Of a DNA stretch of 64,000 nt, positions 1 to 16,359 are shown piece by piece (positions within the stretch are counted from its first letter, which is position 1; every line of letters starts with the position of its first letter). Below the pieces are notes generated by a model, which was given only the letters and a program-made list of their open reading frames with translations, had not been told where the DNA came from and did no database searches. The stretch spans positions 1,216 to 65,215 of the forward strand of contig DRFJ01000048.1 of NCBI GenBank assembly GCA_011050615.1, given 5' to 3'. The DNA comes from Bacteroidota bacterium. GTDB taxonomy: Bacteria > Bacteroidota > Bacteroidia > Bacteroidales > VadinHA17. A program made the translations under genes and the position numbers.

Positions 1-79
1 CAATATAAAAGCTTACGGCTCCGAGGAGGAACCATATAAACCTGTTGGCGAAAATGATCTTAAGGTTATACCTTATCAT
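1..79 (-). CDS. First 26 codons of a further membrane protein (probable ABC-2-type permease), cut by the window edge
   Basis: Minus-strand ATG at 79-77, 31 nt after the stop of the fusion gene. Translates MIRYNLKIIFANRFIWFLLGAVSFYI..., a short basic N-terminus followed by a hydrophobic helix, the same layout as the N-terminus of the 1140-aa permease starting at 13972. Too short for the ORF track. Confidence 0.35.
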   Translation of the reverse strand, partial: MIRYNLKIIFANRFIWFLLGAVSFYI

Positions 80-110
80 TTTCACCACTATATCGGCCAG
101 GTTAGCTATA

Positions 111-3100
111 TTAGTTATTCTGCTCATTATATATTTCACTTTTACTCTTTCTCAGCAGCCAGAGGTAGGAATCCTCAAGGTTGGGCTTTACCTCCCTTGC
201 CTGCTCATGCGGTTTATTCAGGGATATGCATCTCACCCTTATGCTTCCTTTTTCTGACATATGGTGTACCACCATGTTCTCCGAGGCAAATTTCCTGAAT
301 TCAGCTGCGGGAATGTTAAACTGCCATACCCTGCCCTCGGCTTCTTTAGTCATTTGTCCGGGGTGACCCAGGTATTTGAGATAGCCCTTATCAAGCACAG
401 CCACCTTGTTACATGAGCTCGATATGTCTTCGATTATATGAGTTGAAAATATTACCACCCGTTCCCGGCTCAGTTCCACCAGGAGGTTTCTGAACCTTAT
501 TCTTTCCCTGGGGTCGAGTCCTGCCGTCGGTTCGTCCACCACCAGTATGCGAGGCAAATGCAGCAATATCTGTGCAATACCGATTCTCTGCTTCATTCCA
601 CCTGAGTAGGATCCGATTTTTTCATCCTTGCGTTCATGCATATGCACTGCATTAAGGACATAATGTACCCGTTCATCCCTGGTTTTTTTGTCGGTAATAT
701 TTTTCAATATAGCCTGGTGCTGTAGGAATTCCCAGGCTGTCATGTTTTCATAGGTCCCGAATTCCTGGGGGAGGTAGCCGATAAGTCCCTGCAATTCCTC
801 ACGTTTTTCGGCAACATCAAGGCCATTAATCCATATCTTTCCATAGCTTTGATCGAGTATGCCGCAGATTATTCTCATCAATGTTGTTTTTCCCGCACCA
901 TTTGGCCCCAGTAATCCAAACATCCCATTTCCAATCTCCATTGATACTCCCCCCAGTGCCTTGAATGGTTTACGAACCTTGCCTATGAGGGGAGTGGAAA
1001 GAACCAGTTTGTAATAAGCCTTCCTCAGATTCCTGAATCTTCCTTTCAGCCTGTAGATATCGGTAGCTTTTTCATTGAGAGATCTGCCTGTTGACCATAT
1101 CATAAGGCCCGCATACCATAGAAAACCCACAACAATGACTGCAGCAATATTATTCCATTTGGCCTGGAAGATAATCAGATTGGCAAAGGGGATAAGCCAG
1201 TAGACAGCTATATTCAGTATTTTTTTCAGGAAGGGGGGCAAGGTTTTCTTATCCCTCAGTATCGAATAAAGCGGATCCCAGATAAGGATTATCATAAACC
1301 AGCTGACAAGGCTGAAGAAGAATATCCAGAAGCCTTTCTGTAAATATATATATGTGAAATAAAGTAAGAAGCCCAGCAGTGGTATTTGCCAGATATACTG
1401 TTGTAAATCGCGTATTGATTGAGGTTTTGTATCAAGTCCCAGCCTGCTTCTGATTTTCTTTCCTGCTTTCCATTCCCTGATCATCCTTGGATCACGGTCA
1501 TATATTTTAACAAGGCTCCTGATAACTATATTTACCGGCTCGTCTTCGGCTATAACTGTTTCTCGTGCTTTCCTGAGGCTTGTCCTGATAAACCAGGTCA
1601 CTGCCGGCACAAGTATGATTACAAGTATGGTGCTTATAAGCTGCCACAGGAACTTGTTAATATAAAGGTATATCATTGTCACAAGAAAAACAGAAACGAT
1701 GAGCATTACTGTTTTTATCTTCCAGTTCTGTGACCTTATCCATGATATTGAATTTTCAAGTCCGGTATAAAAAGTAGGAATAAAGACCAGTGTAAGCATC
1801 GTACTGAGGGCAAGTCCGCCAATAACAGTTATTGCAAATGAGGCCCCTATTATGGATGCATATTCTGATTTTCCCATTGCCAGAGGCATTAATGCTACGA
1901 TAGTTGTAATTGCCGTAATAAGGATAGGCCTTACACGGGCCAGACCTGCCGTCATAAGAGCTCTTGACCTCCTGTAGCCTCTTTTCCTGAGTATATTTGA
2001 ATAATCGATAAGAATAATGCCATTATTGACCACCACGCCAAGCAGAATGAGAAAGCCGGTAAGTGTGTTGGCGTTTAGCAATGAATTGCCCGTAAGTATA
2101 AGTGCAATTAGTGAACCAAGTGCTGCCAGTGGTATTGAAAGCATGAGCACTACCGGTGTTGACAATGATTCAAAAACAGCAGCCAGTATCATAAAAATCA
2201 GCAGGAAGGCAATACCTATAAGGTAATAGAAGTCTTTTAACTGGTCCTCTTCATGTATAACTTCAATAGCTATACCCGAAGGAATATTCATTCCTGCAAT
2301 CAGCTGGTCTATTTCTTCCCTTGCACTTTCAAGCAAGGTCCTGGATGAAGTTATCTCATTATTAAACCTGTAGGTAATAGTAATACTCTTTTCCTGGTTT
2401 TCACGGTGGATATTACCCATGCCGTAGGAGAATACTATCGCGGCAATCTCTTCCATTTCAACAATGTTACCACTTGCACCGGATATCTGTAACCGTTTAA
2501 GGTCATCAATATTTTTATACTCTTCTTCCTCTTCCTCCGGCCTGTCGTATTTTATTATTATATCATATTCCTCCTCGCCCTGTTTGAATTTTACACCCGA
2601 TGAATATTCAGGTTGAAATGATGTCAGTTCCTGGGTAATATTATTCAGGCTGATATTATTCCTGCTCATCAGCTCAGTGTTGAAACTGAGCTGTACTTCG
2701 GGTGTATTGTCCTGGATATTAGCACTTACCGATCTGATGGTATTCAGGTCTTCCAGATAATATTCCATATCATCAGCCAGGTTTCTCATCTTGCCGAAGT
2801 CCTGGCCCTTGATTATTATGCTTTCAGACTCGGCACCTATGCCCAGCATACGGGTAAATCCCTCTCCCGGGTTAATCCCGCCGGCTCCACCGCCTCCTCC
2901 CATACCTGAGCCCGAGGAAATCTCACCCATAGTTATTTCAGCACCTCCGAAATTGTGTACCCGTTCGTAAATATCGTTTTTAATTTCAGCAAGTTCACGG
3001 TTACTTTCCTTATCCCAGTCTTCCTTCAGCTGGATTGTAAGGGAGGCCTGGTCTTCCTCAATCTTTGATATAATATCTCCTTTTTCGGGGAGGTTGTCGA

Positions 3101-4847
3101 GGCGTTTTTCAAGCTCGCTTACCAGTACATCTGTTTTTTCGAGGGTTGACCCGGCCGGCATAATAATGCTTACCGGGAAGCTTCCTGTTTCTATCTCTTC
3201 CAGGGTATTAATGCTTAATCCCAGGCTTATCAGCAGGGCGGCAAAAAAGACGACCAGGCTTCCAATAATAGTTGTAGCGGGACGGCGCATGCTGGCCTTC
3301 AGGATGAGAAGATAGGATTGTATCAGGCGGTCATGTATTGAGAGTTTTTTGAAGACCTGTGAATGACTCTTTTTGGACCATGAAAGCAGGTAATGTGTTG
3401 CCATGGGAATCAGCAGAAGGGCAACGGCCAGAGAAACCAGGAGGGTTGACACTATCGAAACTCCAATATTCTTACCTATAATTTTTACCAGGAAATTATC
3501 AGAGAATACAAAGGGAAGGAAGACTGTTATGGTAGTAAGTGTGGCTGCTATCACTGACCTGTACACTTCCTTAGTCCCTTTTTTCACTGCCTCGTCGGTA
3601 CCGGATCCACTTCCTGCGAGCCTGTAAATATTCTCGAGGACAACAACCGAATTGTCAATAAGCATACCTATGGCAAGGGCCATGCCTACCAGGGTAAGGC
3701 TGTTCACGGTTATGCCTGCTGCATAGAAGAAGTTAAAGGCTGTGAATACTGAAACAGGTATGGAAAAAGCAATGATGAAAACCAGTCTGAGATTTCTGAG
3801 GAAGAACCATAATATTACAACAGCAAGGAGTCCGCCCAGAAGGGCAAGGTTAATTATCTGGTCAATGTTCTTTTCCATAACCTCGGCGTTATTGTTCTGG
3901 ACAAGAACCTCCACACCTGAAGAAGCCAGTCGTTTGTTCAACTCATCTATGACTTCGAGGGTGTGATGGGAGAGATCGATGATATTAGCCTGGTTATCAT
4001 ATACCAGATTAATGGTTACCGCATCGAGGCCGTTTACCCGGCTGTACGACTCCTCCTCTTTTACACCGAAGAATATTTCTGCCACATCCTTTAGCAGTAC
4101 AGGTCCCTGGGGATTTACCACTATATTCCGGATATCAGTTACATTATCGAATTCAGCAGATATATTGACAAAAAATCTCTTATCTGATTCGTATACCAGT
4201 CCGGCGAACACCTTATCATTACTGTTTGAAGAAATCAGGGATCTGACCCTGTTCATTGTTATGCCATTTGCCTTGCAGGCTTCCTCATCCAGTCTTATTT
4301 CTATTGAGCTTTCCCTTCCTCCGAAGACTTCCACCCCTGCAATACCATCTATATTCTCAAGTTCAGGTTTGATTTCCCTGTCGGCTATATCCCTTATCCT
4401 GTCGACTCCTCCGCTGCCCCTGACCTGCAGGTCCATAAACCGGCTGTTGAGCTGTTCAAGGTCTATCCTTATTATATTCACAACAAATTCTTCAGGAAGG
4501 CTTGCTGACAACACATTCACTTTTTCCTGTAACTTGAGATAGGAGTATTTAAGATCGGCATTCTGGCTGTAATAGATCATTACCATACCATAGCGGGATG
4601 TAACTGTTGATTCTATCTTCTCCACGTCTTCAAGTGTCCCGACAGCTCCTTCAACGGGTATTATTGCCTGGTTTTCAATATATGAGGGGTCAACATCAAG
4701 GACTGAACTCACCTGGACGATAAGAGTGGGTAATTGTGCATTGGGATAAAGCTCAACCTGTAGTTGCTGATATGATACATAACCAAGAAGCGAGAGCCCT
4801 ATAAAGAGCATGCTTATGAGAGTCTTTCTTTTGATTATAAATTCCAT
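111..4847 (-). CDS. RND (AcrB/HAE1-like) efflux permease fused via six extra TM helices to an ABC-transporter ATP-binding domain
   Basis: Single uninterrupted 1578-codon ORF. aa 1-~1035 is a 12-TM RND permease with two large periplasmic loops. aa ~1043-1088 are two extra hydrophobic helices. aa ~1105-1118 (VNIVIRSLVKIYDR) is an ABC beta-1-like strand. aa ~1152-1252 are four more hydrophobic helices. aa ~1295-1578 is an ABC ATPase: Walker A GPNGAGKTT (nt 882-908), Q-loop YLPQE, signature YSGGMKQR, Walker B ILVVDEPTAGLD, H-loop STHI. Confidence 0.9.
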   Translation of the reverse strand: MEFIIKRKTLISMLFIGLSLLGYVSYQQLQVELYPNAQLPTLIVQVSSVLDVDPSYIENQAIIPVEGAVGTLEDVEKIESTVTSRYGMVMIYYSQNADLKYSYLKLQEKVNVLSASLPEEFVVNIIRIDLEQLNSRFMDLQVRGSGGVDRIRDIADREIKPELENIDGIAGVEVFGGRESSIEIRLDEEACKANGITMNRVRSLISSNSNDKVFAGLVYESDKRFFVNISAEFDNVTDIRNIVVNPQGPVLLKDVAEIFFGVKEEESYSRVNGLDAVTINLVYDNQANIIDLSHHTLEVIDELNKRLASSGVEVLVQNNNAEVMEKNIDQIINLALLGGLLAVVILWFFLRNLRLVFIIAFSIPVSVFTAFNFFYAAGITVNSLTLVGMALAIGMLIDNSVVVLENIYRLAGSGSGTDEAVKKGTKEVYRSVIAATLTTITVFLPFVFSDNFLVKIIGKNIGVSIVSTLLVSLAVALLLIPMATHYLLSWSKKSHSQVFKKLSIHDRLIQSYLLILKASMRRPATTIIGSLVVFFAALLISLGLSINTLEEIETGSFPVSIIMPAGSTLEKTDVLVSELEKRLDNLPEKGDIISKIEEDQASLTIQLKEDWDKESNRELAEIKNDIYERVHNFGGAEITMGEISSGSGMGGGGGAGGINPGEGFTRMLGIGAESESIIIKGQDFGKMRNLADDMEYYLEDLNTIRSVSANIQDNTPEVQLSFNTELMSRNNISLNNITQELTSFQPEYSSGVKFKQGEEEYDIIIKYDRPEEEEEEYKNIDDLKRLQISGASGNIVEMEEIAAIVFSYGMGNIHRENQEKSITITYRFNNEITSSRTLLESAREEIDQLIAGMNIPSGIAIEVIHEEDQLKDFYYLIGIAFLLIFMILAAVFESLSTPVVLMLSIPLAALGSLIALILTGNSLLNANTLTGFLILLGVVVNNGIILIDYSNILRKRGYRRSRALMTAGLARVRPILITAITTIVALMPLAMGKSEYASIIGASFAITVIGGLALSTMLTLVFIPTFYTGLENSISWIRSQNWKIKTVMLIVSVFLVTMIYLYINKFLWQLISTILVIILVPAVTWFIRTSLRKARETVIAEDEPVNIVIRSLVKIYDRDPRMIREWKAGKKIRSRLGLDTKPQSIRDLQQYIWQIPLLGFLLYFTYIYLQKGFWIFFFSLVSWFMIILIWDPLYSILRDKKTLPPFLKKILNIAVYWLIPFANLIIFQAKWNNIAAVIVVGFLWYAGLMIWSTGRSLNEKATDIYRLKGRFRNLRKAYYKLVLSTPLIGKVRKPFKALGGVSMEIGNGMFGLLGPNGAGKTTLMRIICGILDQSYGKIWINGLDVAEKREELQGLIGYLPQEFGTYENMTAWEFLQHQAILKNITDKKTRDERVHYVLNAVHMHERKDEKIGSYSGGMKQRIGIAQILLHLPRILVVDEPTAGLDPRERIRFRNLLVELSRERVVIFSTHIIEDISSSCNKVAVLDKGYLKYLGHPGQMTKEAEGRVWQFNIPAAEFRKFASENMVVHHMSEKGSIRVRCISLNKPHEQAREVKPNLEDSYLWLLRKSKSEIYNEQNN

Positions 4848-4853
4848 AGCAGT

Positions 4854-7800
4854 CTACCTGGCTTGCGTAATAAGGCTTTGTTTCTTTCCTCCCACCATGT
4901 CCTTCAGGGCATCCAGTACCCAGTATACACAGGGAATAACCACAAGGGTCAATATGGTAGACGTTACAAGTCCGCCTATCACTGCCAGGGCCATCGGCGA
5001 CCTGAGGGAGGCACTTTCGCCAAAGCCGAATGTCAGAGGTAAGAGTGCCAGTATTGTGGTAATACTGGTCATTACTATAGGTCTGATCCTTTGACCTCCT
5101 GCTTCTATTATTGCCTGACGTCTGCTTAAGCCCTCTGCCCGGAGCTGGTTGATCCTGTCAATCAGGATAATGGAATCATTTACGGCAATGCCCGCCAGCA
5201 TTATAATTCCAATATATGCCATGATATTGAGCGTTTTGCCAAGGAGGAAGAATATCCATACTGAACCGACTGCGGCAAGGGGAATTGTAAGCAATATAAC
5301 AAAGGGATGGATGAGTGATTCAAACTGTGAAGCCAGCACCATATAAACAAGGATGATTGAAAGGATGAGGGCAAAAGTCAGGTTTTTCATTGATTCTTTA
5401 CGCTTAAGTTCCTCTCCGGTGATAATGGTACGGTAGTCTGCCGGCAGACTAATACCTGCCAGTGTCTTTTCAGTATTCCTGACTATATGGTCAAAAGGAA
5501 CCTCCTTATCGGCCATCGCATATACATAGCTTGTTCTTACCTGGTTATTCCTGCTAATTTCACGTGGTGCACTTACTTTTTTTATATCTGCCAGTTCACT
5601 GAGCGGCACCGATACCGAGCCGGCCTTTATCAAAAGGTTTTGCAGGCTCTTCAGTGGTAATTCTTCCAGTTTAATGGTTATATCCTTCAACTCACCACCC
5701 TGCTCAAAGTCGCCCGCTTTTATCCCGGTGAGGTAAGACTGCACCTGTGAGATTATGCTTTCCACACTCACACTGTAATGACTTGCCTTGTAACGGTCAA
5801 TTACTATATCAACCTCTGGAGTTCCTTCGTCCAGTGAGCTGGTGATATTATAAAGGTTTTCTGATTCTGCGAGCCGGGCCTTTACTTCTTCTGTCAGGTC
5901 CCGGATAATGTCAAGATCCTCACCCCTTATTTCAATTACCAGGGGAGCCTTATCCGTTCCAAGAGTTGTTTGCAGGGATGTTTCTTCCCTTTTAAAACTG
6001 ATTTCAATGTACTTCATGGAAGAAAATTTTTCCTGCAGCAGGAGGATGGCTTCATCGGAACGGGCTGCATATTCATCACTAAGAAACACTCTTATCACAG
6101 AAGTGTTTTCGTCCCTGAACAGGTCTGATTCGCCTGAACCCGTTGTGGTTGTAAAACCGGAATGGCTGTACAGCATCTCGACCCTGTCTCCAAGAAGTTC
6201 CCTTGTGATATTTTCCATCTTCCGCGTTGTTTCTGCTGTACGTTCAAGCATCGTACCTTCCGGCATTTTCATCTCGATGGTAAATTCTGATGATTCTGCC
6301 CCGGGCATAAATTCACTGCCCACTTTTGGAAGAATATAGGCCGTAGCAGCCAGCAATATTAAGGCAAGAATTATTACCGGTCCCTTGCGGGCTATTATTT
6401 TTTCCAGCCAGGAGGAATACCATCTGAAGCTTACTGCCCTTTCTTTCCTTTTTGTTTTTCTGTCTTTAAAGAAGGTTGTCACGAGCAGTGGTATTACCAG
6501 TATGGCAACAAAGAGGGACGACAGGAGGGAAAATGCCACTGTCCACGCCTGGTCTTTGAACAATTCACCGGAAGCACCCTGGAGATATACAATTGGAAGA
6601 AACACAACTATTGTAGTTATTGTTGAGGCTGTTATGGCTCCTCCCACCTGGGCTGTCCCTTCAATGGCAGCTTCCCTGAGGGACATCCCCGATTCATAAT
6701 TACGGAATATATTTTCCAGGACGACTATAGCATTATCAACCAGCATCCCGGCTCCGAGGGCCAGTCCCCCGAGGGTCATTATATTTATTGTAAGGTTATT
6801 GAAATACATGAGGTTGAAGGTTGCGATAATTGAAATGGGTATCGCAATGCTCACAACAAGGGTTGTTCCTATGCGGCGCAGGAAAATAAAGAGTACGAAT
6901 ACAGCCAGTATTATACCAAAAAGGGCAGTTTTTTCCACTTCATTGATAGCCCGGTCAATAAACTGGCCCTGGTCCTGGACAATAATAAATTCATAACCGG
7001 GCAAAGCCTTCTTCAGTATCTCAATGGCTTCTGTCAGTTCCTCCACGGCATTAACGGTATTATAGCGGGGCTCTTTATAAACTGACAAGCCCACACATCG
7101 TTCGCCGTTGACGGTTACAATGTTTTCCGGATCCTTATTTGCAATGTAAATATCTGCAACATCGCTGAGGTAAACCGGTATTCTCTCAGCCGCATCCAGA
7201 GTTTCTGCGGTGCTTCCTGCCTGTGATCCTTCTGCAATTTCCCTGAAGCCTATTATAATGTGTTTAAGATCATCGGCCTCTTCTATAACACTGACTCCTT
7301 TAACAACATACCGGGTTCCCAGGTCGGTAATTGAGCCGCCCGACACATTGCGGTTATAGCTGTTTATCTGCTGGGCAATGTCGGAGGTTGACATATCATA
7401 TGCCTGGAGCAGGTATTCATTTGTTTCTATCACTACTTCACCCTCTTCATGACCGGAAAGCTGTATGTCGGCTATACCTTCCAGCCGGATAAGCTCATTG
7501 CGTATGTAATTTTCCGCTGTCTGTCGCAATTCATCCATATTGCTTATCCTGTCATGTTTCAGGGCTATGATCATTACGGGGGTGGCATTGGGATTGTACT
7601 GAGTTATATTGAACTCATCAAGATCTGCATTCTGGCTGAATGAACTTATATCTTTCTGCAGGTCGAGAAAGGCTTCGTCCATATCCTTGTTCCAGGCATA
7701 TTCAACAATTACCTGGGCAGTACCCACCATCGAAACAGATGAAACATTAATTGCATCCTTCTGTCGCATTGCTATTGATTCAACCTGGTCAACAAATTGT

Positions 7801-7985
7801 TTTTCCATCTCTTCGGGCGGTCGCTCACCGGCCTGCAGTTCAATATAGATTTTCGGATTATTCAGGTCGGGGAACAGGTCTGTTCCCAGCTTGCCAAAGG
7901 AAATTATTCCAAGCAGGATTATGCCCAGTACCAGCATAAGTATAGTTACCGGATTTTCAACTGCAAATCGGACTATTTTTTTCAT
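4854..7985 (-). CDS. RND family efflux transporter permease (AcrB/HAE1-like), stand-alone
   Basis: 1043 aa. N-terminus MKKIVRFAVENPVTILMLVLGIILLG is typical. 12 predicted TM helices with two large periplasmic loops. Conserved TM4 region GGLALGAGMLVDNAIVVLENI. Starts 12 nt after the MFP gene. Confidence 0.92.
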   Translation of the reverse strand: MKKIVRFAVENPVTILMLVLGIILLGIISFGKLGTDLFPDLNNPKIYIELQAGERPPEEMEKQFVDQVESIAMRQKDAINVSSVSMVGTAQVIVEYAWNKDMDEAFLDLQKDISSFSQNADLDEFNITQYNPNATPVMIIALKHDRISNMDELRQTAENYIRNELIRLEGIADIQLSGHEEGEVVIETNEYLLQAYDMSTSDIAQQINSYNRNVSGGSITDLGTRYVVKGVSVIEEADDLKHIIIGFREIAEGSQAGSTAETLDAAERIPVYLSDVADIYIANKDPENIVTVNGERCVGLSVYKEPRYNTVNAVEELTEAIEILKKALPGYEFIIVQDQGQFIDRAINEVEKTALFGIILAVFVLFIFLRRIGTTLVVSIAIPISIIATFNLMYFNNLTINIMTLGGLALGAGMLVDNAIVVLENIFRNYESGMSLREAAIEGTAQVGGAITASTITTIVVFLPIVYLQGASGELFKDQAWTVAFSLLSSLFVAILVIPLLVTTFFKDRKTKRKERAVSFRWYSSWLEKIIARKGPVIILALILLAATAYILPKVGSEFMPGAESSEFTIEMKMPEGTMLERTAETTRKMENITRELLGDRVEMLYSHSGFTTTTGSGESDLFRDENTSVIRVFLSDEYAARSDEAILLLQEKFSSMKYIEISFKREETSLQTTLGTDKAPLVIEIRGEDLDIIRDLTEEVKARLAESENLYNITSSLDEGTPEVDIVIDRYKASHYSVSVESIISQVQSYLTGIKAGDFEQGGELKDITIKLEELPLKSLQNLLIKAGSVSVPLSELADIKKVSAPREISRNNQVRTSYVYAMADKEVPFDHIVRNTEKTLAGISLPADYRTIITGEELKRKESMKNLTFALILSIILVYMVLASQFESLIHPFVILLTIPLAAVGSVWIFFLLGKTLNIMAYIGIIMLAGIAVNDSIILIDRINQLRAEGLSRRQAIIEAGGQRIRPIVMTSITTILALLPLTFGFGESASLRSPMALAVIGGLVTSTILTLVVIPCVYWVLDALKDMVGGKKQSLITQAR

Positions 7986-7997
7986 TTTTCGGGATGC

Positions 7998-9050
7998 TTA
8001 TTTCAGTATTTTTACCTTGGCATTATGGCTGAGCGTTTCAAAGCCGTCAGTAACGACTCTTTCATTGGTGTTCAATCCCCTTATCACTTCAACCTCTTTG
8101 TTGTTTTCTAGTCCGGTGGCGATTATGCGTTCATTGGCAACACCCCTGTTTACAATGAAAACGGTCATTCCTCTTTGCCTTGACAGGATAATATCTTTAG
8201 GTATTACAATAACCGAGTCGGCACGGTGGGTAATTATATCAGCCTTAACAAACATCCCCGGCCTGAGTTTTAGCTCCGGGTTGTTTATTTCAATGCTCCC
8301 CCGGAAAGTTCTTGTCTGTGCATTTATTGCAGGTGACAATTGAGTAATCTTACCCTTCAGGGTGTCTCCGGGAAGGGCATAATTAGTTATTCTGACAGTC
8401 TGCCCGGTGCGGATATCATTTATATATTTTTCAGGGAGGTTAATATCCAGAAGCATGGACTTGTAATCCATAATGCCTGCAACCTTGGTTCCTGACTGTA
8501 TTTCTGAGCCCTGGGTATAATATGGCAATTCGGTAATAAACCCGTCAAAGGGAGATGTGATTTTCATCTTTTCGATTTGAAGGCGTGCATTTTCGACTGT
8601 AATCTGGGCGTTGATATAATCATAGCCAGCCTGCTTCAATTCATTAAGTGTAACACCCCCCTTTTCATATAATGACTCCTGTTTTTCAAGATTACTCTTT
8701 GCGAGTTCAAGATTAAGCTCATAGAGTTCCAGCTTAATATTATTTTCATATTCTTCATCTTCGAGGCGGACAATTAATGAACCTTTTCTAAGCCTGTCAC
8801 CAAGCTGCCATTGCCTTCCTGTTTCCGCGTTATTTTCCAGGTAGTACCTGGCGGCTATCTCAGCCACAAGTTCAACATCCACCACAGGATAGACAGTGCC
8901 TGTAGTGCTTACAAATTCTTCAATTGATTTGAGTTTTATGTCTTCTACTGAAACAGGAATTTCAACGTCAGCCTCCAGACCGGCATCCTGGTTATTGCAT
9001 CCTGCGAATAGGAAGGAGAAGAATAAAAGATATATCAGTCTTATTTTCAT
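7998..9050 (-). CDS. Efflux RND periplasmic adaptor subunit (membrane fusion protein, HlyD/AcrA-like) lipoprotein
   Basis: 350 aa. Signal peptide with lipobox FLFAGC, a coiled-coil hairpin segment (NIKLELYELNLELAKSNLEKQESLYEKGGVTLNELKQA), and barrel-sandwich/beta-barrel C-terminal part. Lies between OMF and RND genes. Confidence 0.85.
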   Translation of the reverse strand: MKIRLIYLLFFSFLFAGCNNQDAGLEADVEIPVSVEDIKLKSIEEFVSTTGTVYPVVDVELVAEIAARYYLENNAETGRQWQLGDRLRKGSLIVRLEDEEYENNIKLELYELNLELAKSNLEKQESLYEKGGVTLNELKQAGYDYINAQITVENARLQIEKMKITSPFDGFITELPYYTQGSEIQSGTKVAGIMDYKSMLLDINLPEKYINDIRTGQTVRITNYALPGDTLKGKITQLSPAINAQTRTFRGSIEINNPELKLRPGMFVKADIITHRADSVIVIPKDIILSRQRGMTVFIVNRGVANERIIATGLENNKEVEVIRGLNTNERVVTDGFETLSHNAKVKILK

Positions 9051-9071
9051 GATATTATATTGTTTCGTTAT

Positions 9072-10538
9072 TTATTGTTGTTCAAGTATCTTTATAGGTG
9101 TTACTGCTTCCTTCTTTTCAAAATCATAAAGGGTTTGTATTTTGAGATTAAGTAATTCCAGTTTATATGATATTATTGCATTGGTAAGAGACAGTTGTTT
9201 TTCAGATAGCTGGTTCTGGTAGATATTAAGATCCATACCTGTAAGGTCGCCGTTCTCATATTTTTCAAGGTTAAGCTCATAGGTCAGTTGTGCATTTTTG
9301 ACATTCTGCCTTGCTATTTCAATCTGGTTTTTAAGATTGGTCAGATTCCTGTATACTTTTCTTATGTTAATTATTATATTGTTTTCTTCCTCTTCATAGC
9401 CTATCATCTGTGATTCGATTGAAGCTTCGGCGGCTTTTATCCTTGATTTACGCTCACCCCAGTCCCACAGGGGTATGGAAAAAGATACGGATACCTGCTG
9501 GTTGTCGGTTGGACTTGCATATATATCGGTAAAATTTTCATTATCACCGAACAAGCCGACCGAGAGGTTAAGGTCGCCCCGAAATTCATTGAGAGCCTTG
9601 GTTTGTATAAGTGAAAATTCTGTATTCTCAATATCTATTTCCCTTTGCCTGAGTTCCATCCTGTTTGCCAGGCCATGATTAATGGCAAAGGTCACATCAA
9701 CATCAATTGTATCGACAGAAATATCGGGGATAACTATTATATCGTCATACAGGCTCATTCCGATCAGCAATTTGAAATCATCCTTGGCATCTTCGAGGCT
9801 TACCCTCTGGTTGTCAACATCAGAACTTGAGGTCGCGAGGTTGAGCTCAGCCTGGTAAAGTTCTTCCCTGGCTGATAATCCGGCATCAACTTTATTCCTG
9901 ATTATATCATAGCTTTTCGTCATATTCTGATAAGCCTCTTCTGCTATAATAAGGCTTTGCTGCTGCTGGTATACGAGATAGAAATACTGGGCTACCTGTC
10001 TTTCCAGTGAAAGCCTCTGTATGGCATAATTGAGCTGTGAATTTTCAAGAGCCAGTTCCAGTTCGCTTATCTGCAGCTTTGTCCTGTTATATGTAAACAG
10101 GGGCTGGTTTATGTTGAGGGACAGGTTATTACTAAATCCTTTGGTGCGCGAGTCATTATACTCGCTGTAGGAGTTTTGCCACGAAAACCTGTTGTTCAAT
10201 GATATTGTGGCATCAGTGGCAACTATGGGTTGAGATATTCTGAAGGTGCCGAAACTGCGTGTTGTTTCACGGGTATTCCATCTTGAAACAAGATCGTTGA
10301 ATTCCCTGTTGTGGGTATACTCAAAAGGGTTTACCGAAAGAGAGAACTGGGATTTGAGAGCAGCCCTCTGGGCATTGAGGTTTTCCCTGCTTCTGACAAG
10401 ATTAAGCCTTGTTCTCTTTATTGAAGGGCTGTTTTCTTCGGCTATATCCAGTGCCATTTCCAGGGTGAGGCCCTGCTGCGCTGTTACATTAAGAGCAAAA
10501 TTAAGGACTACCGGTAATAATAATATTAACTTCTTCAT
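9072..10538 (-). CDS. TolC-family outer membrane efflux protein
   Basis: 488 aa. Signal peptide MKKLILLLPVVLNFALNVTAQ, then LTLEMALDIAEENSPSIK typical of the OMF N-terminus. Two internal repeats rich in coiled-coil-forming Q/L/N/E. Confidence 0.85.
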   Translation of the reverse strand: MKKLILLLPVVLNFALNVTAQQGLTLEMALDIAEENSPSIKRTRLNLVRSRENLNAQRAALKSQFSLSVNPFEYTHNREFNDLVSRWNTRETTRSFGTFRISQPIVATDATISLNNRFSWQNSYSEYNDSRTKGFSNNLSLNINQPLFTYNRTKLQISELELALENSQLNYAIQRLSLERQVAQYFYLVYQQQQSLIIAEEAYQNMTKSYDIIRNKVDAGLSAREELYQAELNLATSSSDVDNQRVSLEDAKDDFKLLIGMSLYDDIIVIPDISVDTIDVDVTFAINHGLANRMELRQREIDIENTEFSLIQTKALNEFRGDLNLSVGLFGDNENFTDIYASPTDNQQVSVSFSIPLWDWGERKSRIKAAEASIESQMIGYEEEENNIIINIRKVYRNLTNLKNQIEIARQNVKNAQLTYELNLEKYENGDLTGMDLNIYQNQLSEKQLSLTNAIISYKLELLNLKIQTLYDFEKKEAVTPIKILEQQ

Positions 10539-10549
10539 ATAGTATTATA

Positions 10550-13500
10550 TTATTTAAGCGTATTCTGTCTTACCCATTTTACTGCATCTCCGGTAACTGT
10601 TCTTCCTTCTGACTGGTTTGTCATTATCACCCTTGCGGTGTCAGGTGAGAGATAATATGAACCCAGGTGATTCCATCCGTTTTCCGCGTTTTCCCAGTTT
10701 ACTGTCATTTCCTCGCTCCCATCATCATGCTCAACGCTGAAATGCAGGTCCTGCATTACATTCCTGCCTTCCCCGCCCCGCCCCATCATCATTCTTTGTC
10801 CGCCCCGCTTGCCTATAAAAGTATACACATCGTAGTATCCGGGCTCCGGGATACTGGCTGTCCAGCTTATATATCTTTCCCCGCTGCCGGCGCGTGTATA
10901 TACTGCTGACTTGACATATTTACCATAATAAATGCTCTCAACCGTCTTTTGCCAGTATTCCGGTGCCCACCATATGAACATTTCACGGTAATCATTACCA
11001 TTATCACGCCTGATATTCAGCCATTCTTTCAGTTTACCTGATGATGTTTCCTGGTAGATTCTGAATCCCGGATCTTCATTGTCAACAATTATTTCATTTT
11101 CCTCCTCCATGAGAGGTATTTTGTCAAGTATTATTTCCCCTTCGGTATTGTCATCTGTTTTGCCCTGCATAAGATCCATCAGTGGAAACTGCAGCTCACC
11201 GGGATTATTAATTGAAAAGAGTGTATTTACGAACATACCCCGTGGCTGGGCATCAAGTATCACACTTATTCTTTTGGCCTGGTTTGCTTCAAGCTTTACA
11301 ATTTTTTCCACATCATTGGTCTGCATACCCCTGCCTTCCATACCTATTGACATACTACCCCTTCCTGAGGCGCTTATGGTAATTGATACATTGCCCCCCA
11401 TGCCTCGTCCTCCACCTTGTCCCGGCCTACCGGTACGGAAGCCGACATTGAAAATGCCGGGTGTCTTTTCAGGATTGGATGCAGTAAAACTTACTTTGTA
11501 CCTGGTGCGGTTTCCTACAACTATTTCGTTAACTATAATATCAGTAAAAAGAAAACCCGGCTGCCCTTTACCATTATACCATTGATCAAGGTAGCTCTTG
11601 AGGTCGAAGCCGAACCTTTCGCCGAGATCGCTGTTAAATTCATCTATACTGACATTCCTGAATTTTTTCTTTTCGAGGTATGATGAAAACCAGTTGTTAA
11701 ACTCTTCCATCCCGGCCTCCGCACGAAGGAGGTTAAACAGGTAATCACCTTTTAATGTGAGTATAAGTCTTGTAGTGTCTGTCGACGGGTTAAGGGCGAG
11801 TATTTCCTTCAGGCTGTGATCCTTGAGGATGGTATTTGCCCTGTCATTCTCACTGAGTCCTCCCAGAAGCATCCTCTGGAATCCTCTCTGAGGCGTTTCC
11901 ACTTTCTGAAGGTGTGTTTCAAAAACAGCATTGATAACAGGATATTCATCGGAATAGAAATTATTCTTGTAAAAATAGAAACTGGGTCCCAGCAAATATC
12001 TTCCCGGGGTCATAGAAGTGTTTCCCCTGTTAAATCGGAAACCGGAGCTGGTGATGAAGGTATTTCTGACAAAATTATTAAAAGCCCTGACCTGGAGTTC
12101 CCTGTCGGTTATTACCTCGTTATTCCTTTCCATCCTTCTTTTTTGCCTCTTTATTGTACCGTGGAAGCCGGCATCATTTATTGTAGCCAGCTTTTCTGGC
12201 AAGAGTATAAGTGAAGGCTGAACTTCAGCCCTTGTCTGGGTATTTTTTCTTTCTATCGAGTGAAAATAAACCGGCACTTCCACGAGACTCAGGCTGTTAA
12301 AGGGATATTCAGTGCTAAAATTTGTTTCGAGCTCTGTCATAATCCCTGATATGAGGTTACCGAGGGTGTCACTCAGTTCATTCAGATCCTTCCTGAAGTA
12401 GTCGTGTCCCCTGTAGTAATGTGCTATAAAGCCGGTTGAATCAACTGTAATGGTATCGCTGATATAATTACCTTCTATTAGACTGATTCCGGTCAGAGGC
12501 ACCTCATTCTTGAAATACCAGTAATCATTGTCAGATGATCTTACTCCCTGTGATACAGCAACAAGTTTATTGTTTCTGGCAACCTTTAATGTATAATATG
12601 TAAAGTCAATGAGGATCCTTGCCGGATTGCCCGGATAAAAGTTGAGCCCTGCTACGGGGTACCAGTGAGTTTCAGGTGTCAGCAAGAGAAAATTGTCTTT
12701 TTGAATAGCCTGTCTTTTTTCAACCCTGACGGGCCCAATGGTGAACGGATCCTTCTTTATATCTTCCGTATGCCAGGGATAGCAGTAAGCCTCTTCTACC
12801 AGGCCCTCATAGGTGAAACTAATACTTAAAGATGAATCGGGTTCAAGGGCTTTCCCGAGATCAACAATAATTATATGGCCATCGCCTGTAAATGAAGCAG
12901 GCGAACCATTTACGTCAATCTTTCTGACCGCCAGTCCGGGGTTTAATGAAAAGGGAGATTCACTGAGCGGCCTTCCCGTGTTATTTACACAATTTAATGT
13001 TGCCAGGGCAGTGATAGAACGCTTTGAATAATCAATTTCAATATCTGCCTCCGTAACTTTAAGGAAATCGCTGCTTTCGTATTTCCTGTTGGTTTCTGTT
13101 ATGGAAGTTTTAAGGTTTTGGGTCCTGTAATAATCATCCAGGAAATAATATGCTGTGAAAGCGGTAATGGCTAAAAATATAATCAGGGAGACAGAGCTTA
13201 TGATCCTGTGTGTTCTTGATTGTGGCAGCCTTTTAAATATAAGTATTGTTGCGAAAATAAAAACAAGACCCAGGGCTGTATACATAATTCTCTGGGCAAG
13301 AATCAAATCTAAATTACTGAATCCCGTTATATTGCTTTTAAAGACAGGAAATCCAAAGAGCATATAGTCGAAAAATGAATTCATCCTGTTATAGAGATAG
13401 AACATATCAAGTGCCGCAAGGCCCAGCAGCAGGAGGAAGGTGATTGCCTGGTTGCGGATGATGGACATCAATATATAGGCAAAGCCAAGGCTGAAGATCA

Positions 13501-13972
13501 ATGTCGGGATAGTGATTATAAAAATATATTCAATATAAGCAGCTGCATCTATACTTGCCTGTTTAGATATTATGTTAATTATGAGGCAGATGATAAGGAT
13601 TAATATATTTACGCCCAGGAAAAGCCTCAGTATGCCAAGTGATTTTCCGAATATATACTCCATGTTTGACATCGGCCTTGTATAAAGAACCTCATTTGTA
13701 TCCAGCTTTTTATCTCTTTTAAGGAAGTCTGATGCCAGAAATATTACTATAAGAGCCTGGGCAATATTAATTATGTAAAGGTTAAACAGTGGCAGGGATG
13801 AAGGGATGGCAAGGAAGGACCAGTCTTCATCTCCCACGGGGCTGAAAATCCCGATATTCATTATTGAAAGGATAAACAGTGCTCCAAATGAGAACAACCT
13901 GAAAAGCCAGCTGCGGCGTAATGTTTTAGCCTCATAGTGGGCAACAGTTCTGATATTGTGAATGGAAATCAT
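10550..13972 (-). CDS. ABC-2-type permease (about 7 TM) fused to a large periplasmic M1-aminopeptidase-like domain without HExxH and a golvesin-C-terminal-like domain
   Basis: 1140 aa. aa 1-~285 hold about 7 hydrophobic helices. The ectodomain carries M1-like landmarks (THWYPVAG...FTYYTLKVARNNKLVAVSQG; ...SYLDQWYNGKGQPGF). No HE dipeptide occurs anywhere, so no HExxH zinc site. The C-terminus ...ENGWNHLGSYYLSPDTARVIMTNQSEGRTVTGDAVKWV resembles golvesin/Xly C-terminal-like carbohydrate-binding domains. Start codon lies 1 nt after the ATPase stop. Confidence 0.75.
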   Translation of the reverse strand: MISIHNIRTVAHYEAKTLRRSWLFRLFSFGALFILSIMNIGIFSPVGDEDWSFLAIPSSLPLFNLYIINIAQALIVIFLASDFLKRDKKLDTNEVLYTRPMSNMEYIFGKSLGILRLFLGVNILILIICLIINIISKQASIDAAAYIEYIFIITIPTLIFSLGFAYILMSIIRNQAITFLLLLGLAALDMFYLYNRMNSFFDYMLFGFPVFKSNITGFSNLDLILAQRIMYTALGLVFIFATILIFKRLPQSRTHRIISSVSLIIFLAITAFTAYYFLDDYYRTQNLKTSITETNRKYESSDFLKVTEADIEIDYSKRSITALATLNCVNNTGRPLSESPFSLNPGLAVRKIDVNGSPASFTGDGHIIIVDLGKALEPDSSLSISFTYEGLVEEAYCYPWHTEDIKKDPFTIGPVRVEKRQAIQKDNFLLLTPETHWYPVAGLNFYPGNPARILIDFTYYTLKVARNNKLVAVSQGVRSSDNDYWYFKNEVPLTGISLIEGNYISDTITVDSTGFIAHYYRGHDYFRKDLNELSDTLGNLISGIMTELETNFSTEYPFNSLSLVEVPVYFHSIERKNTQTRAEVQPSLILLPEKLATINDAGFHGTIKRQKRRMERNNEVITDRELQVRAFNNFVRNTFITSSGFRFNRGNTSMTPGRYLLGPSFYFYKNNFYSDEYPVINAVFETHLQKVETPQRGFQRMLLGGLSENDRANTILKDHSLKEILALNPSTDTTRLILTLKGDYLFNLLRAEAGMEEFNNWFSSYLEKKKFRNVSIDEFNSDLGERFGFDLKSYLDQWYNGKGQPGFLFTDIIVNEIVVGNRTRYKVSFTASNPEKTPGIFNVGFRTGRPGQGGGRGMGGNVSITISASGRGSMSIGMEGRGMQTNDVEKIVKLEANQAKRISVILDAQPRGMFVNTLFSINNPGELQFPLMDLMQGKTDDNTEGEIILDKIPLMEEENEIIVDNEDPGFRIYQETSSGKLKEWLNIRRDNGNDYREMFIWWAPEYWQKTVESIYYGKYVKSAVYTRAGSGERYISWTASIPEPGYYDVYTFIGKRGGQRMMMGRGGEGRNVMQDLHFSVEHDDGSEEMTVNWENAENGWNHLGSYYLSPDTARVIMTNQSEGRTVTGDAVKWVRQNTLK

Positions 13973-13973
13973 T

Positions 13974-14879
13974 TTATTTAACCTGTACGTTAATGTTTGT
14001 TCCGTTTATCTTATGCTCCATGTAATAAACATAGGCATGTTCCAGGTTGGGCTCAATTTCCTGGCTGTCAAATCCTGACACGTCATCGGCCACTACCTGG
14101 GCATCCCAGCCAATATCACTGGGTATGGATGAGATTATATGGTAAGTGTCTTTAATCCTGTCATATTCTTCCTGGGTCAGTCTCAGGTTAAATACATGAC
14201 CCTCAGCCTGTTTTACCAGTTCGTCAGGTGATCCTGAAAAAACCATTTCACCCATGTTCAAAAGCGCCATTCCCTGGCATGTAGAGGAAATATCTCCTAC
14301 TATATGCGTGGAAAGGATAATTGTAACATCATGTTGACTCAGGTCTGACAGTATATTCCTGAACCGTATTCTTTCATCAGGGTCAAGGCCCGTTGTTGGC
14401 TCATCCACAACTATAATTCTTGGGTCACCTATCAGTGCCTGGGCAATGCCAAGTCTTCTTTTCATCCCTCCTGATAATTTATTTGCCTTCCTGTCCCGTG
14501 CTTCAAGCAGGCCTACCTTGTCAAGAAGCTCATCAACTATGGACAGCCTTTGCTTCCTGTTTTTTATACCAGCCAGCGAGCCTGCATAATCAAGGAATTC
14601 CCATGTTTTTAAACGTGTAAAGAAACGAAAATCCTGGGGGAGGTATCCCAGGTAAGAACGCAGTTTTTTCCTGTTCTTCTGTATGTTTTCTCCATCGACA
14701 AGCACCTCCCCGGAGCTTGGTTTCATAAGGGCGACAAGTACCTTCATGAGGCTGGATTTACCTGCGCCGTTCGGACCCAGCAGACCGAACATCCCTTCTG
14801 CAATTGTCAGATTGATGTTTTTAACAGCGTGATTACCGTTTTTATATATTACATCAAGACCTCTTATCTCGATCTTCAT
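13974..14879 (-). CDS. ABC transporter ATP-binding protein (ABC-2 subfamily type)
   Basis: 301 aa. Walker A GPNGAGKSS, Q-loop YLPQD, signature LSGGMKRR, Walker B IIVVDEPTTGLD, H-loop STHI. C-terminal accessory domain ends in EPNLEHAY. Visibly paralogous to the C-terminal domain of the 1578-aa fusion. Confidence 0.92.
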   Translation of the reverse strand: MKIEIRGLDVIYKNGNHAVKNINLTIAEGMFGLLGPNGAGKSSLMKVLVALMKPSSGEVLVDGENIQKNRKKLRSYLGYLPQDFRFFTRLKTWEFLDYAGSLAGIKNRKQRLSIVDELLDKVGLLEARDRKANKLSGGMKRRLGIAQALIGDPRIIVVDEPTTGLDPDERIRFRNILSDLSQHDVTIILSTHIVGDISSTCQGMALLNMGEMVFSGSPDELVKQAEGHVFNLRLTQEEYDRIKDTYHIISSIPSDIGWDAQVVADDVSGFDSQEIEPNLEHAYVYYMEHKINGTNINVQVK

Positions 14880-15043
14880 TGGATATTAAATTTATGAATG
14901 AAATGCTTTACAATATATTCGACTCCTTAAAGACCTGAAATATTTCAAATAGATGGTAATATTTATATAGATTTTCTGTTTTTAAATATGCTTAACATTT
15001 TGCAATGATTTTAATTATCCTGCAAGGGTGTAAAAGTAATTTC

Positions 15044-15051
15044 TAATTTTG
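15044..15051 (+). promoter_or_regulatory. Candidate Bacteroidota -7 promoter element (TAnnTTTG)
   Basis: TAATTTTG lies 19 nt upstream of the TTG start at 15070. No convincing -33 TTTG at canonical spacing. Confidence 0.3.
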
Positions 15052-15069
15052 TAAAACAAAAGAATAAGG

Positions 15070-16332
15070 TTGGATACGGGAATAAACAAGCTTAAAATAT
15101 TAAACGATCCTGTACACGGGTTCATAAAGATACCCTCGGAATTTATATTTGATCTTCTGGAAGATCCGTGGTTTCAGCGTCTCAGGTTTATCAAACAGCT
15201 GGGTCTTACAGATATGGTATATCCCGGGGCCACCCACAGCAGGTTTCTGCACAGCCTGGGTGCTTTACACCTTATGGGACAAGCTCTGACCACCCTCCGT
15301 AAAAAGAAAGTAGAAATAAGTGATGAAGAATTTGAAGCAGCCCTGATAGCAATACTGTGCCATGACCTTGGACACGGTCCGTTTTCCCATTCTCTTGAAT
15401 TCAATATCTCCGGGAAGATCAGCCATGAAAACATATCTTTGCTGGTAATGAAAATCCTCAACGATAAATATGCAGGAAAGATGGAAATGGCAATTCAGAT
15501 CTTCAGTGGCGAATATCACAAAAAGTTTTTTAATGATCTTATTTCAAGTCAGTTAGATATGGACCGGCTGGATTACCTGCTTCGGGACAGTTTTTATACG
15601 GGTGTGATTGAAGGATCTGTTGGATCGGACAGGATAATAAGTATGCTTAACACTTCGGGCGCCAGGCTTGTTGTAGAGGAAAAAGGAGTATATTCAATAG
15701 AAAAATTTCTTATAGCACGACGGTTTATGTACTGGCAGGTATATATGCATAAAACTGTTCTGGCTGCTGACCAGATGCTGAAAAAAATTCTGAGCAGGGC
15801 AAGATTTCTGATTGATAACGGTGAGTCCGTCAGGTCGACTGTGCCTGTAGACTATTTTATCCGTACAAGGATAGACAATGAAGAAATATTAAAGTTTAAA
15901 AACAGTGAGTTTGCAGAAATGTTTTTTAAACTTGATGATAATGAGCTTATTTCTTCCATAAGGCAATGGGCCGGGAATGGCGACAGGATACTGTCTGACC
16001 TTGCAAAATCATTTCTTTCTCGCAGGCTACCTGCAATAGAACTTTCTGATCAACCTTTCCCGGAAAAATCGATTAATAAAATAAGCGCTTCTTTGAAGGG
16101 GCTGAATGATTTCAGATCGCAGGATACCGGAAGTTATATTTATTCTGGTTGCATATCAAACTTAACCTATGCTCCTGCAGCGCCCAGTATCAAAATACTG
16201 AAGAAGGACGGATCACTTAAGGAGCTTACAGAATTATCAAGTATACTCAGGCATGAGACTTTATCGAAAAGTACCCTAAGGTATTATCTTTGTTATCCGA
16301 AGGATTTAAGGGATAGTGTGGTAAAACAGTAA
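15070..16332 (+). CDS. HD-domain phosphohydrolase (dGTPase/SAMHD1-like family, COG1078-type)
   Basis: 420 aa. N-terminus KILNDPVHGFI, HD motif region RFLHSLG...ILCHDLGHGPFSHSLE, and later LDMDRLDYLLRDS. Only a TTG start is available. Sits upstream of lpxD as in many Bacteroidota. Confidence 0.8.
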   Translation: MDTGINKLKILNDPVHGFIKIPSEFIFDLLEDPWFQRLRFIKQLGLTDMVYPGATHSRFLHSLGALHLMGQALTTLRKKKVEISDEEFEAALIAILCHDLGHGPFSHSLEFNISGKISHENISLLVMKILNDKYAGKMEMAIQIFSGEYHKKFFNDLISSQLDMDRLDYLLRDSFYTGVIEGSVGSDRIISMLNTSGARLVVEEKGVYSIEKFLIARRFMYWQVYMHKTVLAADQMLKKILSRARFLIDNGESVRSTVPVDYFIRTRIDNEEILKFKNSEFAEMFFKLDDNELISSIRQWAGNGDRILSDLAKSFLSRRLPAIELSDQPFPEKSINKISASLKGLNDFRSQDTGSYIYSGCISNLTYAPAAPSIKILKKDGSLKELTELSSILRHETLSKSTLRYYLCYPKDLRDSVVKQ

Positions 16333-16359
16333 TAATTTTCAAAGAGAAAAATATAGAAA

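Follow-up and report, generated by a model that had tools for sequence, protein, structure and literature searches.

Tripartite efflux pumps are classed by a single inner-membrane engine, which is of the resistance-nodulation-division (RND), ATP-binding cassette (ABC) or major facilitator superfamily type. To our knowledge, the case for inner-membrane pumps cooperating with RND pumps has so far been made from kinetics and genetics only. Heterotrimeric RND pumps are known, MdtBC being one (PMC8277102), and the abstract of PMC4338810 reports that inner-membrane pumps potentiate trans-envelope RND efflux. Here we describe an operon in a window of 64,000 nt from a Bacteroidota bacterium (assembly GCA_011050615.1, contig DRFJ01000048.1, positions 1,216-65,215 of the forward strand), in which one gene encodes an RND protein fused to an ABC ATPase. 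The balance tips slightly towards its seven genes encoding a single conserved system of envelope transport, with an ABC stage that would feed an MdtBC-like RND stage.

When the list of open reading frames (ORFs) for window 1-17000 was examined, six complete co-directional genes and the beginning of a seventh, cut at the window edge, were observed on the minus strand. In order, they encode a stand-alone ABC nucleotide-binding domain (NBD1), an ABC-2 permease with a large ectodomain (PermBig), a TolC-like outer-membrane factor (OMF), a lipoprotein membrane fusion protein (MFP), RND1, the fusion RND2::NBD2 and a second permease (Perm2). Coordinates are in window numbering, "L" labels denote loci of relatives and "P" labels denote proteins of relatives. 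The features are listed below (TM, transmembrane).

13974..14879, minus strand: NBD1, stand-alone ATPase, 301 aa (ABC_tran, E = 6.9e-33)
10550..13972, minus strand: PermBig, ABC-2 permease with ectodomain, 1140 aa (Golvesin_C, E = 1.2e-12; weak Peptidase_M1 and weak ABC2_membrane_4 matches)
9072..10538, minus strand: TolC-like OMF, 488 aa (OEP, E = 2.2e-49)
7998..9050, minus strand: MFP of the RND type, 350 aa (TIGR01730 RND_mfp, 201.2 bits against a cut-off of 94.9)
4854..7985, minus strand: RND1, unfused 12-TM protein of the HAE1 type, 1043 aa (ACR_tran over the full length)
111-4847, minus strand: RND2::NBD2 fusion, 1578 aa (ACR_tran at residues 2-1028, ABC_tran at residues 1301-1442)
1743..4847, minus strand: RND2 part of the fusion, residues 1-1035, 12-TM (ACR_tran, E = 1.6e-165, residues 2-1028)
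978..1742, minus strand: membrane linker of the fusion, residues 1036-1290, six predicted TM helices (TM scan)
111..977, minus strand: NBD2, residues 1291-1578, ABC ATPase core and C-terminal regulatory-like domain (ABC_tran, E = 2.4e-28)
1..127, minus strand: start of Perm2, cut by the window edge; ATG at 79 or, more likely, in-frame ATG at 127

A preliminary description of this stretch had named an ATPase, a permease with a big ectodomain, an OMF, an MFP and two RND proteins, and Pfam and NCBIfam bore these assignments out. The co-directional order and the intergenic gaps that it gave for the first six genes (1, 11, 21, 12 and 6 nt) stand as well. Its final gap of 31 nt does not, and is probably a 17-nt overlap. 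The in-frame ATG at 127 gives MSRITNIANLADIVVKMIRYNL..., which matches the longer N-terminus called in the L002 ortholog. With this start, Perm2 would share its first 17 nt with the fusion gene, which suggests translational coupling. The tight spacing and overlaps of the operon genes are consistent with co-translation.

The fusion of an RND protein to an NBD, which the preliminary description had proposed, is genuine. Fusion proteins were found at full length in more than 150 clusters (1,486-1,607 aa), with identity down to about 30%. When the 1578-aa protein was used as the query, more than 120 clusters of 1,560-1,604 aa were 65-100% identical over the full length (NCBI, JGI, ENA and Logan assemblies). 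HMMER with the C-terminal 543 aa gave approximately 35-40 further clusters (clustered at 50% identity), whose linker and NBD aligned at about 1030-1570 of 1,550-1,600 aa and whose identity was as low as 32%. About 26 more fusions were obtained with the Acidobacteriota protein P0274 as seed, and their source names included Thermoanaerobaculales, Acidobacteria and Candidatus Latescibacteria; the taxonomic breadth given here and below rests on source names in the sequence records together with contig look-ups. Judged from these alignments, the RND-NBD fusion is real and old. Two proteins that resembled natural split forms were rejected as artefacts. P0290, a candidate stand-alone linker and NBD, overlaps the preceding truncated RND ORF on a frameshifted long-read contig of 2x coverage, and the start of P0252 lies just 65 nt inside its contig.

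The public names of the fusion proteins are generic ('efflux RND transporter permease subunit', 'AcrB/ABC-type ... ATPase subunit'). Relatives of PermBig are named 'hypothetical protein' or, at JGI, 'multi-copper enzyme maturation permease' (NosY-like). Literature searches returned no description of an RND-ABC fusion or of this operon; their coverage of subscription journals was thin, so the absence is not proof. Within the literature searched and with such names, the system does appear as undescribed as had been suggested.

The covalent tie between the RND protein and the NBD also stands, and it is not a simple tether, as the two parts are joined by about 260 aa with six predicted TM helices. 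The linker begins with a two-TM hairpin (window 1560-1724), followed by beta1 'IVIRSLVKIY' (1500-1529), an amphipathic helix and a four-TM bundle (1068-1397). When the family was aligned, a conserved segment I-x-I-x-x-L-x-K-I-Y with an invariant Lys was observed upstream of the four hydrophobic helices, and the remainder of the NBD came after the helices. This segment resembles the first beta-strand of an ABC NBD. An AlphaFold2 model of residues 1031-1578, built with 34 sequences, had a predicted local distance difference test score (pLDDT) of 85.7 and a predicted template modelling score (pTM) of 0.70. In model numbering, it contains two TM helices (12-66), a strand (77-86) that corresponds exactly to the conserved segment, an amphipathic helix and four long helices (121-230), and then the NBD core and a C-terminal beta-rich domain. 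Four TM helices are predicted, from this model, to be inserted between beta1 and beta2 of NBD2. That beta1 pairs with the NBD sheet is suggested by the DSSP strand assignment and by variants with a short linker. The predicted topology is self-consistent, because the 12 RND helices end on the cytoplasmic side and after the 2 + 4 additional helices the chain is back on that side, where the NBD follows.

The short-linker fusions represent a second RND::NBD architecture of 1,389-1,451 aa (P0298, P0302, P0305, P0332, P0346 and P0368). In these proteins the NBD follows the RND part directly, without the extra TM helices, and a soluble beta1-beta2 loop of about 50 aa replaces the four-TM bundle.

Conservation of the gene neighbourhood had been proposed as a check of the preliminary description, and when it was run, the ABC and RND parts were found linked in relatives and not at unlinked loci. 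A sample of 80 metagenome loci anchored on PermBig was laid out by tblastn, and each partner was counted over the loci whose contig reaches it. NBD1 was present in 73/73, the OMF in 66/66, the MFP in 55/56, RND1 in 45/46, RND2 in 30/31 and the fusion linker in 25/25. L159 is the sole exception among these loci, as the MFP and the RND genes do not come after its OMF. A 324-aa ORF lies where they would be expected (L159 15100-20338), and there are no Ns in this region.

Loci anchored on the fusion gave the full block in Bacteroidota relatives at 92, 82, 67, 66 and 53% identity, the last of these being a Bacteroidales metagenome-assembled genome (MAG), and the genes beyond Perm2 differ among them. 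The seven-gene order is identical in L001-L004, L007, L092 and L093. As the same layout recurs in more than 85 independent loci, the earlier suggestion that the genes are not together by chance holds. A genome collection was also scanned, starting from aligned C-termini of the fusion family, and the scan relied on generic Walker A and Q-loop patterns: 79 of the 80 loci carried ordinary ABC ATPases, and L007 was the useful one.

Outside Bacteroidota, the two Acidobacteriota loci L088 and L089 have the order NBD1-PermBig-MFP-RND1-RND2::NBD2-Perm2 without an OMF (about 30-36% identity). The Latescibacterota locus L174 has the same six genes in order, with an OMF at the far end (also about 30-36% identity). 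In pairwise comparison, RND1, RND2, NBD1, NBD2 and the MFP each formed their own cross-phylum orthologous lineage. By these comparisons six genes (NBD1, PermBig, MFP, RND1, RND2::NBD2 and Perm2) make up the cross-phylum core, and they occur in at least three phyla. PermBig with NBD1 was never found apart from the RND set, in the 80 loci (with the one exception of L159) and in the three distant loci. A smaller arrangement was observed in L087 (10001-15534), which has only the fusion and Perm2, with no MFP, RND1, NBD1, PermBig or OMF nearby. As far as the compared loci indicate, the smallest unit consists of the fusion and Perm2, the conserved system comprises all six genes, and an OMF is added in each lineage. 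If the RND protein of L087 were a homotrimer, it would carry three NBDs.

Perm2 is found after the fusion at every locus examined, including the minimal L087. In relatives it is 238-246 aa long and has six TM helices. A close ortholog gave no match in Pfam, and the L087 ortholog matched ABC2_membrane_2 with 35.2 bits (cut-off 27.2). When Perm2 was compared with the transmembrane domain of PermBig by hhalign, a probability of 70.6% and an E-value of 3.8e-5 were obtained, with a common motif D-x-x-T-x-E-x-L. According to this alignment, the two appear to be remotely homologous permeases of the ABC-2 type.

Both ATPases have canonical motifs. For Walker A, Q-loop, signature, Walker B with the catalytic Glu, and H-loop, these are GPNGAGKS, LPQD, LSGGMKRR, VVDEPT and STH in NBD1, and GPNGAGKT, LPQE, YSGGMKQR, VVDEPT and STH in NBD2. 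NBD1 is of the DrrA/GldA/NosF-like class, and its NCBIfam scores of 191.8 bits for TIGR01188 drrA and 184.5 bits for GldA (TIGR03522, cut-off 402.6) are both under the cut-off. NBD2 scored 168.8 bits with the GldA model, against the same cut-off of 402.6. Sequence matches of NBD2 in the PDB were ABCA3, ABCA4, ABCA1 and NosF, and its Foldseek matches were TM_1403, NosF, LptB and ABCA proteins. NBD1 and NBD2 are 39-46% identical to each other in pairwise comparison, their orthologs across phyla are 45-53% identical, and GYLPQ[DE]F and ERIRFRN are common to both. On these identities, NBD1 and NBD2 are close paralogs.

PermBig starts with an amphipathic helix and seven TM helices within residues 1-275 (TM scan and AlphaFold2 model). 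Because the seven hydrophobic helices lie in this part, the other 865 aa are predicted to be periplasmic, in agreement with the periplasmic ectodomain of approximately 850 aa in the preliminary description. The ABC2_membrane_4 match was 17.3 bits (cut-off 27), and a match to PF12679 is precomputed for one ortholog. The Peptidase_M1 match was 22.6 bits (cut-off 27.7) and covers the C-terminal part of the catalytic domain weakly. When the PDB was searched with the PermBig sequence, nothing significant was obtained, and only the fold search gave matches. Foldseek with the ectodomain returned M1 aminopeptidases for all of the top 50 (E-values of 3e-12 to 2.5e-10, probability 1.0), the best being IRAP, ERAP1 and PepN, at a sequence identity to M1 of about 11-13%. 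The Foldseek TM-scores were low because the PermBig model is multi-domain with a pLDDT of 65.5 (pTM 0.43); its beta-sandwich at residues 300-520 is confident. As modelled, the ectodomain carries an M1 fold, with an N-terminal beta-sandwich and a thermolysin-like domain.

Neither the zinc site HExxH(18)E nor the GxMEN motif occurs in any of the PermBig family members examined (0/35 and 0/11, 46 in total). An active peptidase was ruled out for PermBig, which is without HExxH or GxMEN. Thus, the "M1-like permease" of the preliminary description is right as to the fold, and the catalytic motifs HExxH and GxMEN are missing from it. After the M1-like fold the ectodomain continues with beta-domains that have Gly/Arg-rich disordered loops, and ends in a C-terminal Golvesin_C domain. 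Golvesin_C is the family CBM6/35/36-like_2, and its link to carbohydrate-binding modules (CBM) is given in PMC9166713. The low-complexity loops, rich in Gly, Arg and Met, lie between the beta-domains at window ~11315-11428 and ~10757-10807 (minus strand; PermBig residues 849-886 and 1056-1072), with GRPGQGGGRGMGG...GRGSMSIGMEGRGM as an example. The model predicts disorder in these loops (pLDDT < 50), and their length differs among relatives.

ACR_tran matched RND1 with an E-value of 5.1e-212 at residues 4-1024, on model positions 1-1020. Neither RND protein reached the cut-off of NF033617, a multidrug RND subfamily (RND1 570.2 bits and RND2 474.1 bits, cut-off 1250 bits). The best equivalogs for RND1/RND2 were MdtC (373.7 bits, cut-off 1774) and MdtB (338.4 bits, cut-off 1584), and the scores fell far short of these cut-offs. 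RND1 orthologs from different phyla are 38-46% identical, compared with 26-34% between RND1 and RND2. By identity and position, RND1 and RND2 are distinct, anciently diverged paralog lineages in an order like that of mdtA-mdtB-mdtC. RND2 has a Gly-rich insertion, SSGSGMGGGGGAGGINPG, in the periplasmic porter domain (residues ~645-662; window ~2862-2915, minus strand). It aligns to AcrB residues ~668-669 and is found in RND2 orthologs across phyla and not in RND1. We take these AcrB residues to be the cleft-entrance 'F-loop'.

The MFP is a lipoprotein with the lipobox FAGC, and an MFP was present at every full locus compared. With the MacA model it scored 53.8 bits (cut-off 342). The OMF has an ordinary signal peptide and scored 105 bits with TIGR01844, under the cut-off. 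Adaptor and outer-membrane factor are both encoded beside the RND genes in the window. No OMF was present in the Acidobacteriota operons L088 and L089, and the OMF at the operon end of Latescibacterota L174 matched the Bacteroidota OMF with 20% identity and 33 bits. Such values indicate that the Bacteroidota and Latescibacterota OMFs are non-orthologous, and that the OMF was recruited separately in each lineage and is outside the cross-phylum core.

The interpretation of the preliminary description, a composite machine, is supported. From the sequences we infer that its parts may assemble into one physical machine, with an MFP and an OMF common to all engines. The ABC-2 modules would spend ATP at the inner membrane, either exporting an amphipathic substrate from the cytoplasm or the inner leaflet or handing it over mechanically. 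The catalytically dead M1-like/CBM-like ectodomain of PermBig would be a periplasmic platform for binding or hand-over. An MdtBC-like heterotrimer of RND1 and RND2, using the proton-motive force, would then take the substrate from the outer leaflet or the periplasm and move it out via the MFP and the OMF. The covalent link between RND2 and NBD2, with its six-TM linker, would keep the two stages in proximity. Two stoichiometries can be envisaged. In a trimer of the form RND1:(RND2::NBD2)2 there would be exactly one NBD dimer to serve a Perm2 dimer; in the other arrangement, a single NBD2 would pair with the free NBD1 over a PermBig/Perm2 heterodimer, as in YbhFSR. The most plausible substrate is a lipidic or glycoconjugate component of the envelope or an amphipathic toxin.

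Several points weigh against one such system. The threefold symmetry of an RND trimer and the twofold symmetry of an NBD pair pose a problem, and both stoichiometries are speculative. The periplasmic position of the PermBig ectodomain is deduced from TM counting alone, and the PermBig model is of moderate quality only (pLDDT 65.5, pTM 0.43). L159 has no MFP and RND genes after its OMF. The parts are separable, because L087 has the fusion and Perm2 alone, and the RND protein of L087 may not be tripartite at all. The 80 loci come mostly from one Bacteroidota clade that also shares the upstream lpx gene cluster, so much of the synteny was possibly inherited and not selected. The cross-phylum evidence consists of three full loci. 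The carriers of known origin are nearly all MAGs, and a cultured carrier was not identified among them.

A more specific form of the proposal is a dually energised machine in which ATP hydrolysis and the proton-motive force are mechanically coupled. RND1:(RND2::NBD2)2 would hold a covalently attached ABC ATPase dimer on Perm2, the ectodomain of the second ABC-2 module would catch the substrate, the unfused RND1 would resolve the mismatch between threefold and twofold symmetry, and the exported substrate would be an envelope lipid, a glycoconjugate or a toxin. We offer this form tentatively, as its chances are well below even.

An unlikely, though credible, reading is that the genes encode physically separate and co-regulated transporters, namely an MdtABC-like pump and one or two ordinary ABC-2 exporters that act on the same compound or stress. 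The fusion would then be a tether for stoichiometry or localisation, and the ABC parts would work without coupling and without the MFP/OMF conduit. The MFP is of the RND type (TIGR01730), no permease of the MacB/FtsX type (a known docker of MFPs) was found in the window proteins, and each NBD, with its canonical motifs, could make a homodimeric ABC-2 transporter of the ordinary kind. The separability of the modules is evident from L087. Cooperation of inner-membrane and RND pumps also requires no complex (PMC4338810). Against separate transporters, the fusion is kept down to about 30% identity, and a conserved six-TM linker inside the NBD fold is hard to call a passive tether. In addition, PermBig and NBD1 were not seen away from the RND set in the 80 loci and the three distant loci.

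To a similarly low degree we credit the view that the ABC modules are mechanotransducers or regulators like those of NosDFY, GldAFG, LolCDE and MacB. ATP hydrolysis would then power conformational changes in the periplasm. NBD1-PermBig would move the ectodomain so that it catches a periplasmic or outer-membrane substrate or passes it to the RND cleft, and NBD2-Perm2 would gate or reset the RND2 protomer. Bona fide exporters are included among the ABC-2/ABCA relatives, which speaks against this view, as does the moderate quality of the ectodomain model. However, the NBDs and permeases fall into the NosF/NosY/GldA/GldF class, the JGI name of PermBig relatives is NosY-like, and a huge non-catalytic ectodomain with a carbohydrate-binding-like end fits binding better than transport. 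The Gly-rich insertion, which RND2 and not RND1 has where the cleft-entrance loop of AcrB lies, also agrees with such a role.

A third alternative concerns the proton relay. At the relay positions (AcrB numbering), RND1, RND2 and all relatives examined have D407, N408, N940, R971 and T978, whereas AcrB, MdtB and MdtC have D, D, K, R and T. This difference could mean that proton coupling was lost and that the fused ABC ATPase drives the RND proteins, which we consider very improbable. The unfused RND1 has identical relay residues, and the D/N/N/R/T pattern was found in 90/94 unfused relatives, including cultured Firmicutes such as Dethiobacter and Clostridium aceticum. Because these relatives share the pattern, it is a subfamily trait unrelated to the fusion, and an ATP-driven RND protein with a lost relay was rejected for the same reason. 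The chance that a mis-assembly or frameshift joined adjacent RND and ABC genes is negligible, since more than 150 independent full-length fusion clusters (NCBI, JGI, ENA and Logan) and the PermBig-anchored loci refute it and the split proteins P0290 and P0252 are themselves artefacts.

Whichever of these holds, two engine types are joined in one polypeptide, and a fixed set of partners is retained in at least three phyla. The covalent RND-ABC fusion points to an exporter that spans the envelope and draws on ATP as well as the proton-motive force, and the chance that the system belongs to a new, dually energised class is a real one. If the products form one complex, as in the single transport system that we favour, it would be the first physical coupling of an ATP-driven stage with a stage driven by the proton-motive force. 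It would both pose and answer the puzzle of how a threefold RND assembly is combined with twofold NBDs, and would provide a tractable system for the passage of substrates from the inner membrane to the RND entry sites. An NBD split by a membrane insertion of four helices, and a zinc-less M1-peptidase fold as the ectodomain of a transporter, are unusual in their own right.

Divergent from the operon, an HD-domain gene is followed by lpxD, lpxC/fabZ and lpxA, which belong to lipid A synthesis (window 15070-19692, plus strand). This flank is kept in nearly all Bacteroidota relatives (HD 58/59, LpxD 50/51, LpxC/FabZ 42/45 and LpxA 37/40) and was absent at the two Acidobacteriota loci and the one Latescibacterota locus. 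The adjacency to lpx genes may hint at a role in outer-membrane biogenesis or may be just inherited synteny. Between the HD gene and NBD1, a 4.6-kb insertion was observed in L104 and an extra ABC-ATPase-like gene in L110 and L111. On the other side of the operon, L001 (an 82%-identical relative) carries a Y1 transposase and a type II CRISPR-Cas locus (Cas2, Cas1 and a Cas9-like HNH/RuvC protein) a few kb past Perm2 (L001 19456-24728), which appear unrelated to the operon.

A riboswitch or leader was looked for upstream of the operon (14700-15300), and no Rfam match was obtained at E <= 1. Within the 190-nt spacer upstream, the operon strand has no exact TAnnTTTG motif, and a promoter was not located; a sigma-70 scan is uninformative for Bacteroidota. 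A tRNA-Arg (CCG) at window 58533-58607 (plus strand) was the sole tRNA found in the window and the sole RNA family at or above the Rfam gathering score there.

When compared with described systems, the operon resembles MdtABC, YbhGFSR, MacAB-TolC and NosDFY/GldAFG in parts and falls outside the equivalog or defining tests of each. The resemblance to YbhGFSR of E. coli is one by description and not by sequence. Both combine an MFP with the ABC-2 class and have two related NBDs and two different homologous permeases (NBD1/NBD2 and PermBig/Perm2 in the window). In YbhF, however, the NBDs are fused to each other and not to an RND protein, and YbhGFSR has neither an RND protein nor a large ectodomain. 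This comparison draws in part on the abstract of PMC9951867.

MacAB-TolC likewise has an ATP-driven inner-membrane part with an MFP and a TolC-like OMF, and a sizeable periplasmic domain on the ABC part. MacB is a type VII ABC protein, with a 4-TM permease of the FtsX type fused to its NBD, whereas the window permeases are of the ABC-2 type; Pfam gave no FtsX/MacB_PCD match in any of the six window proteins. The window MFP, in addition, scores as an RND-type adaptor and not as MacA (53.8 bits against 342).

The ABC modules also resemble NosDFY and GldAFG, ABC-2 systems whose large periplasmic partners carry out mechanical or assembly tasks. NosF is among the best matches of NBD2 in structure and in sequence, for both NBDs the NCBIfam model that ranks second is GldA, and the permeases are NosY/GldF-like ABC-2 permeases with a large periplasmic module. 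In contrast to NosDFY and GldAFG, the module in the window is fused to the permease and is M1-peptidase-like, not a beta-helix (NosD) or a GldG fold. The GldA cut-off was missed (184.5 against 402.6), and NosDFY and GldAFG are without RND, MFP and OMF. The predicted fold of this PermBig module matches that of the M1 aminopeptidases (PepN, ERAP1, IRAP and tricorn factor F3), but it has no zinc site or GxMEN, shares about 11-13% identity with them and is anchored to an ABC-2 permease.

For the RND part, the likeness is to MdtABC(-TolC) of E. coli, with the order MFP-RND-RND, two diverged RND paralogs, an MFP of the RND type and the need of an OMF for export across the outer membrane. Adjacency and ancient paralogy are what the window pair has in common with MdtBC, and a heterotrimer of the pair is putative. 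The window RND proteins are far under the MdtB and MdtC cut-offs (373 against 1774 and 260 against 1584), and their relay is D/N/N/R/T in place of D/D/K/R/T. Unlike in MdtABC, one RND protein of the window is extended by six TM helices and an ABC ATPase, and the operon has genes for two ABC-2 permeases and another ATPase as well.

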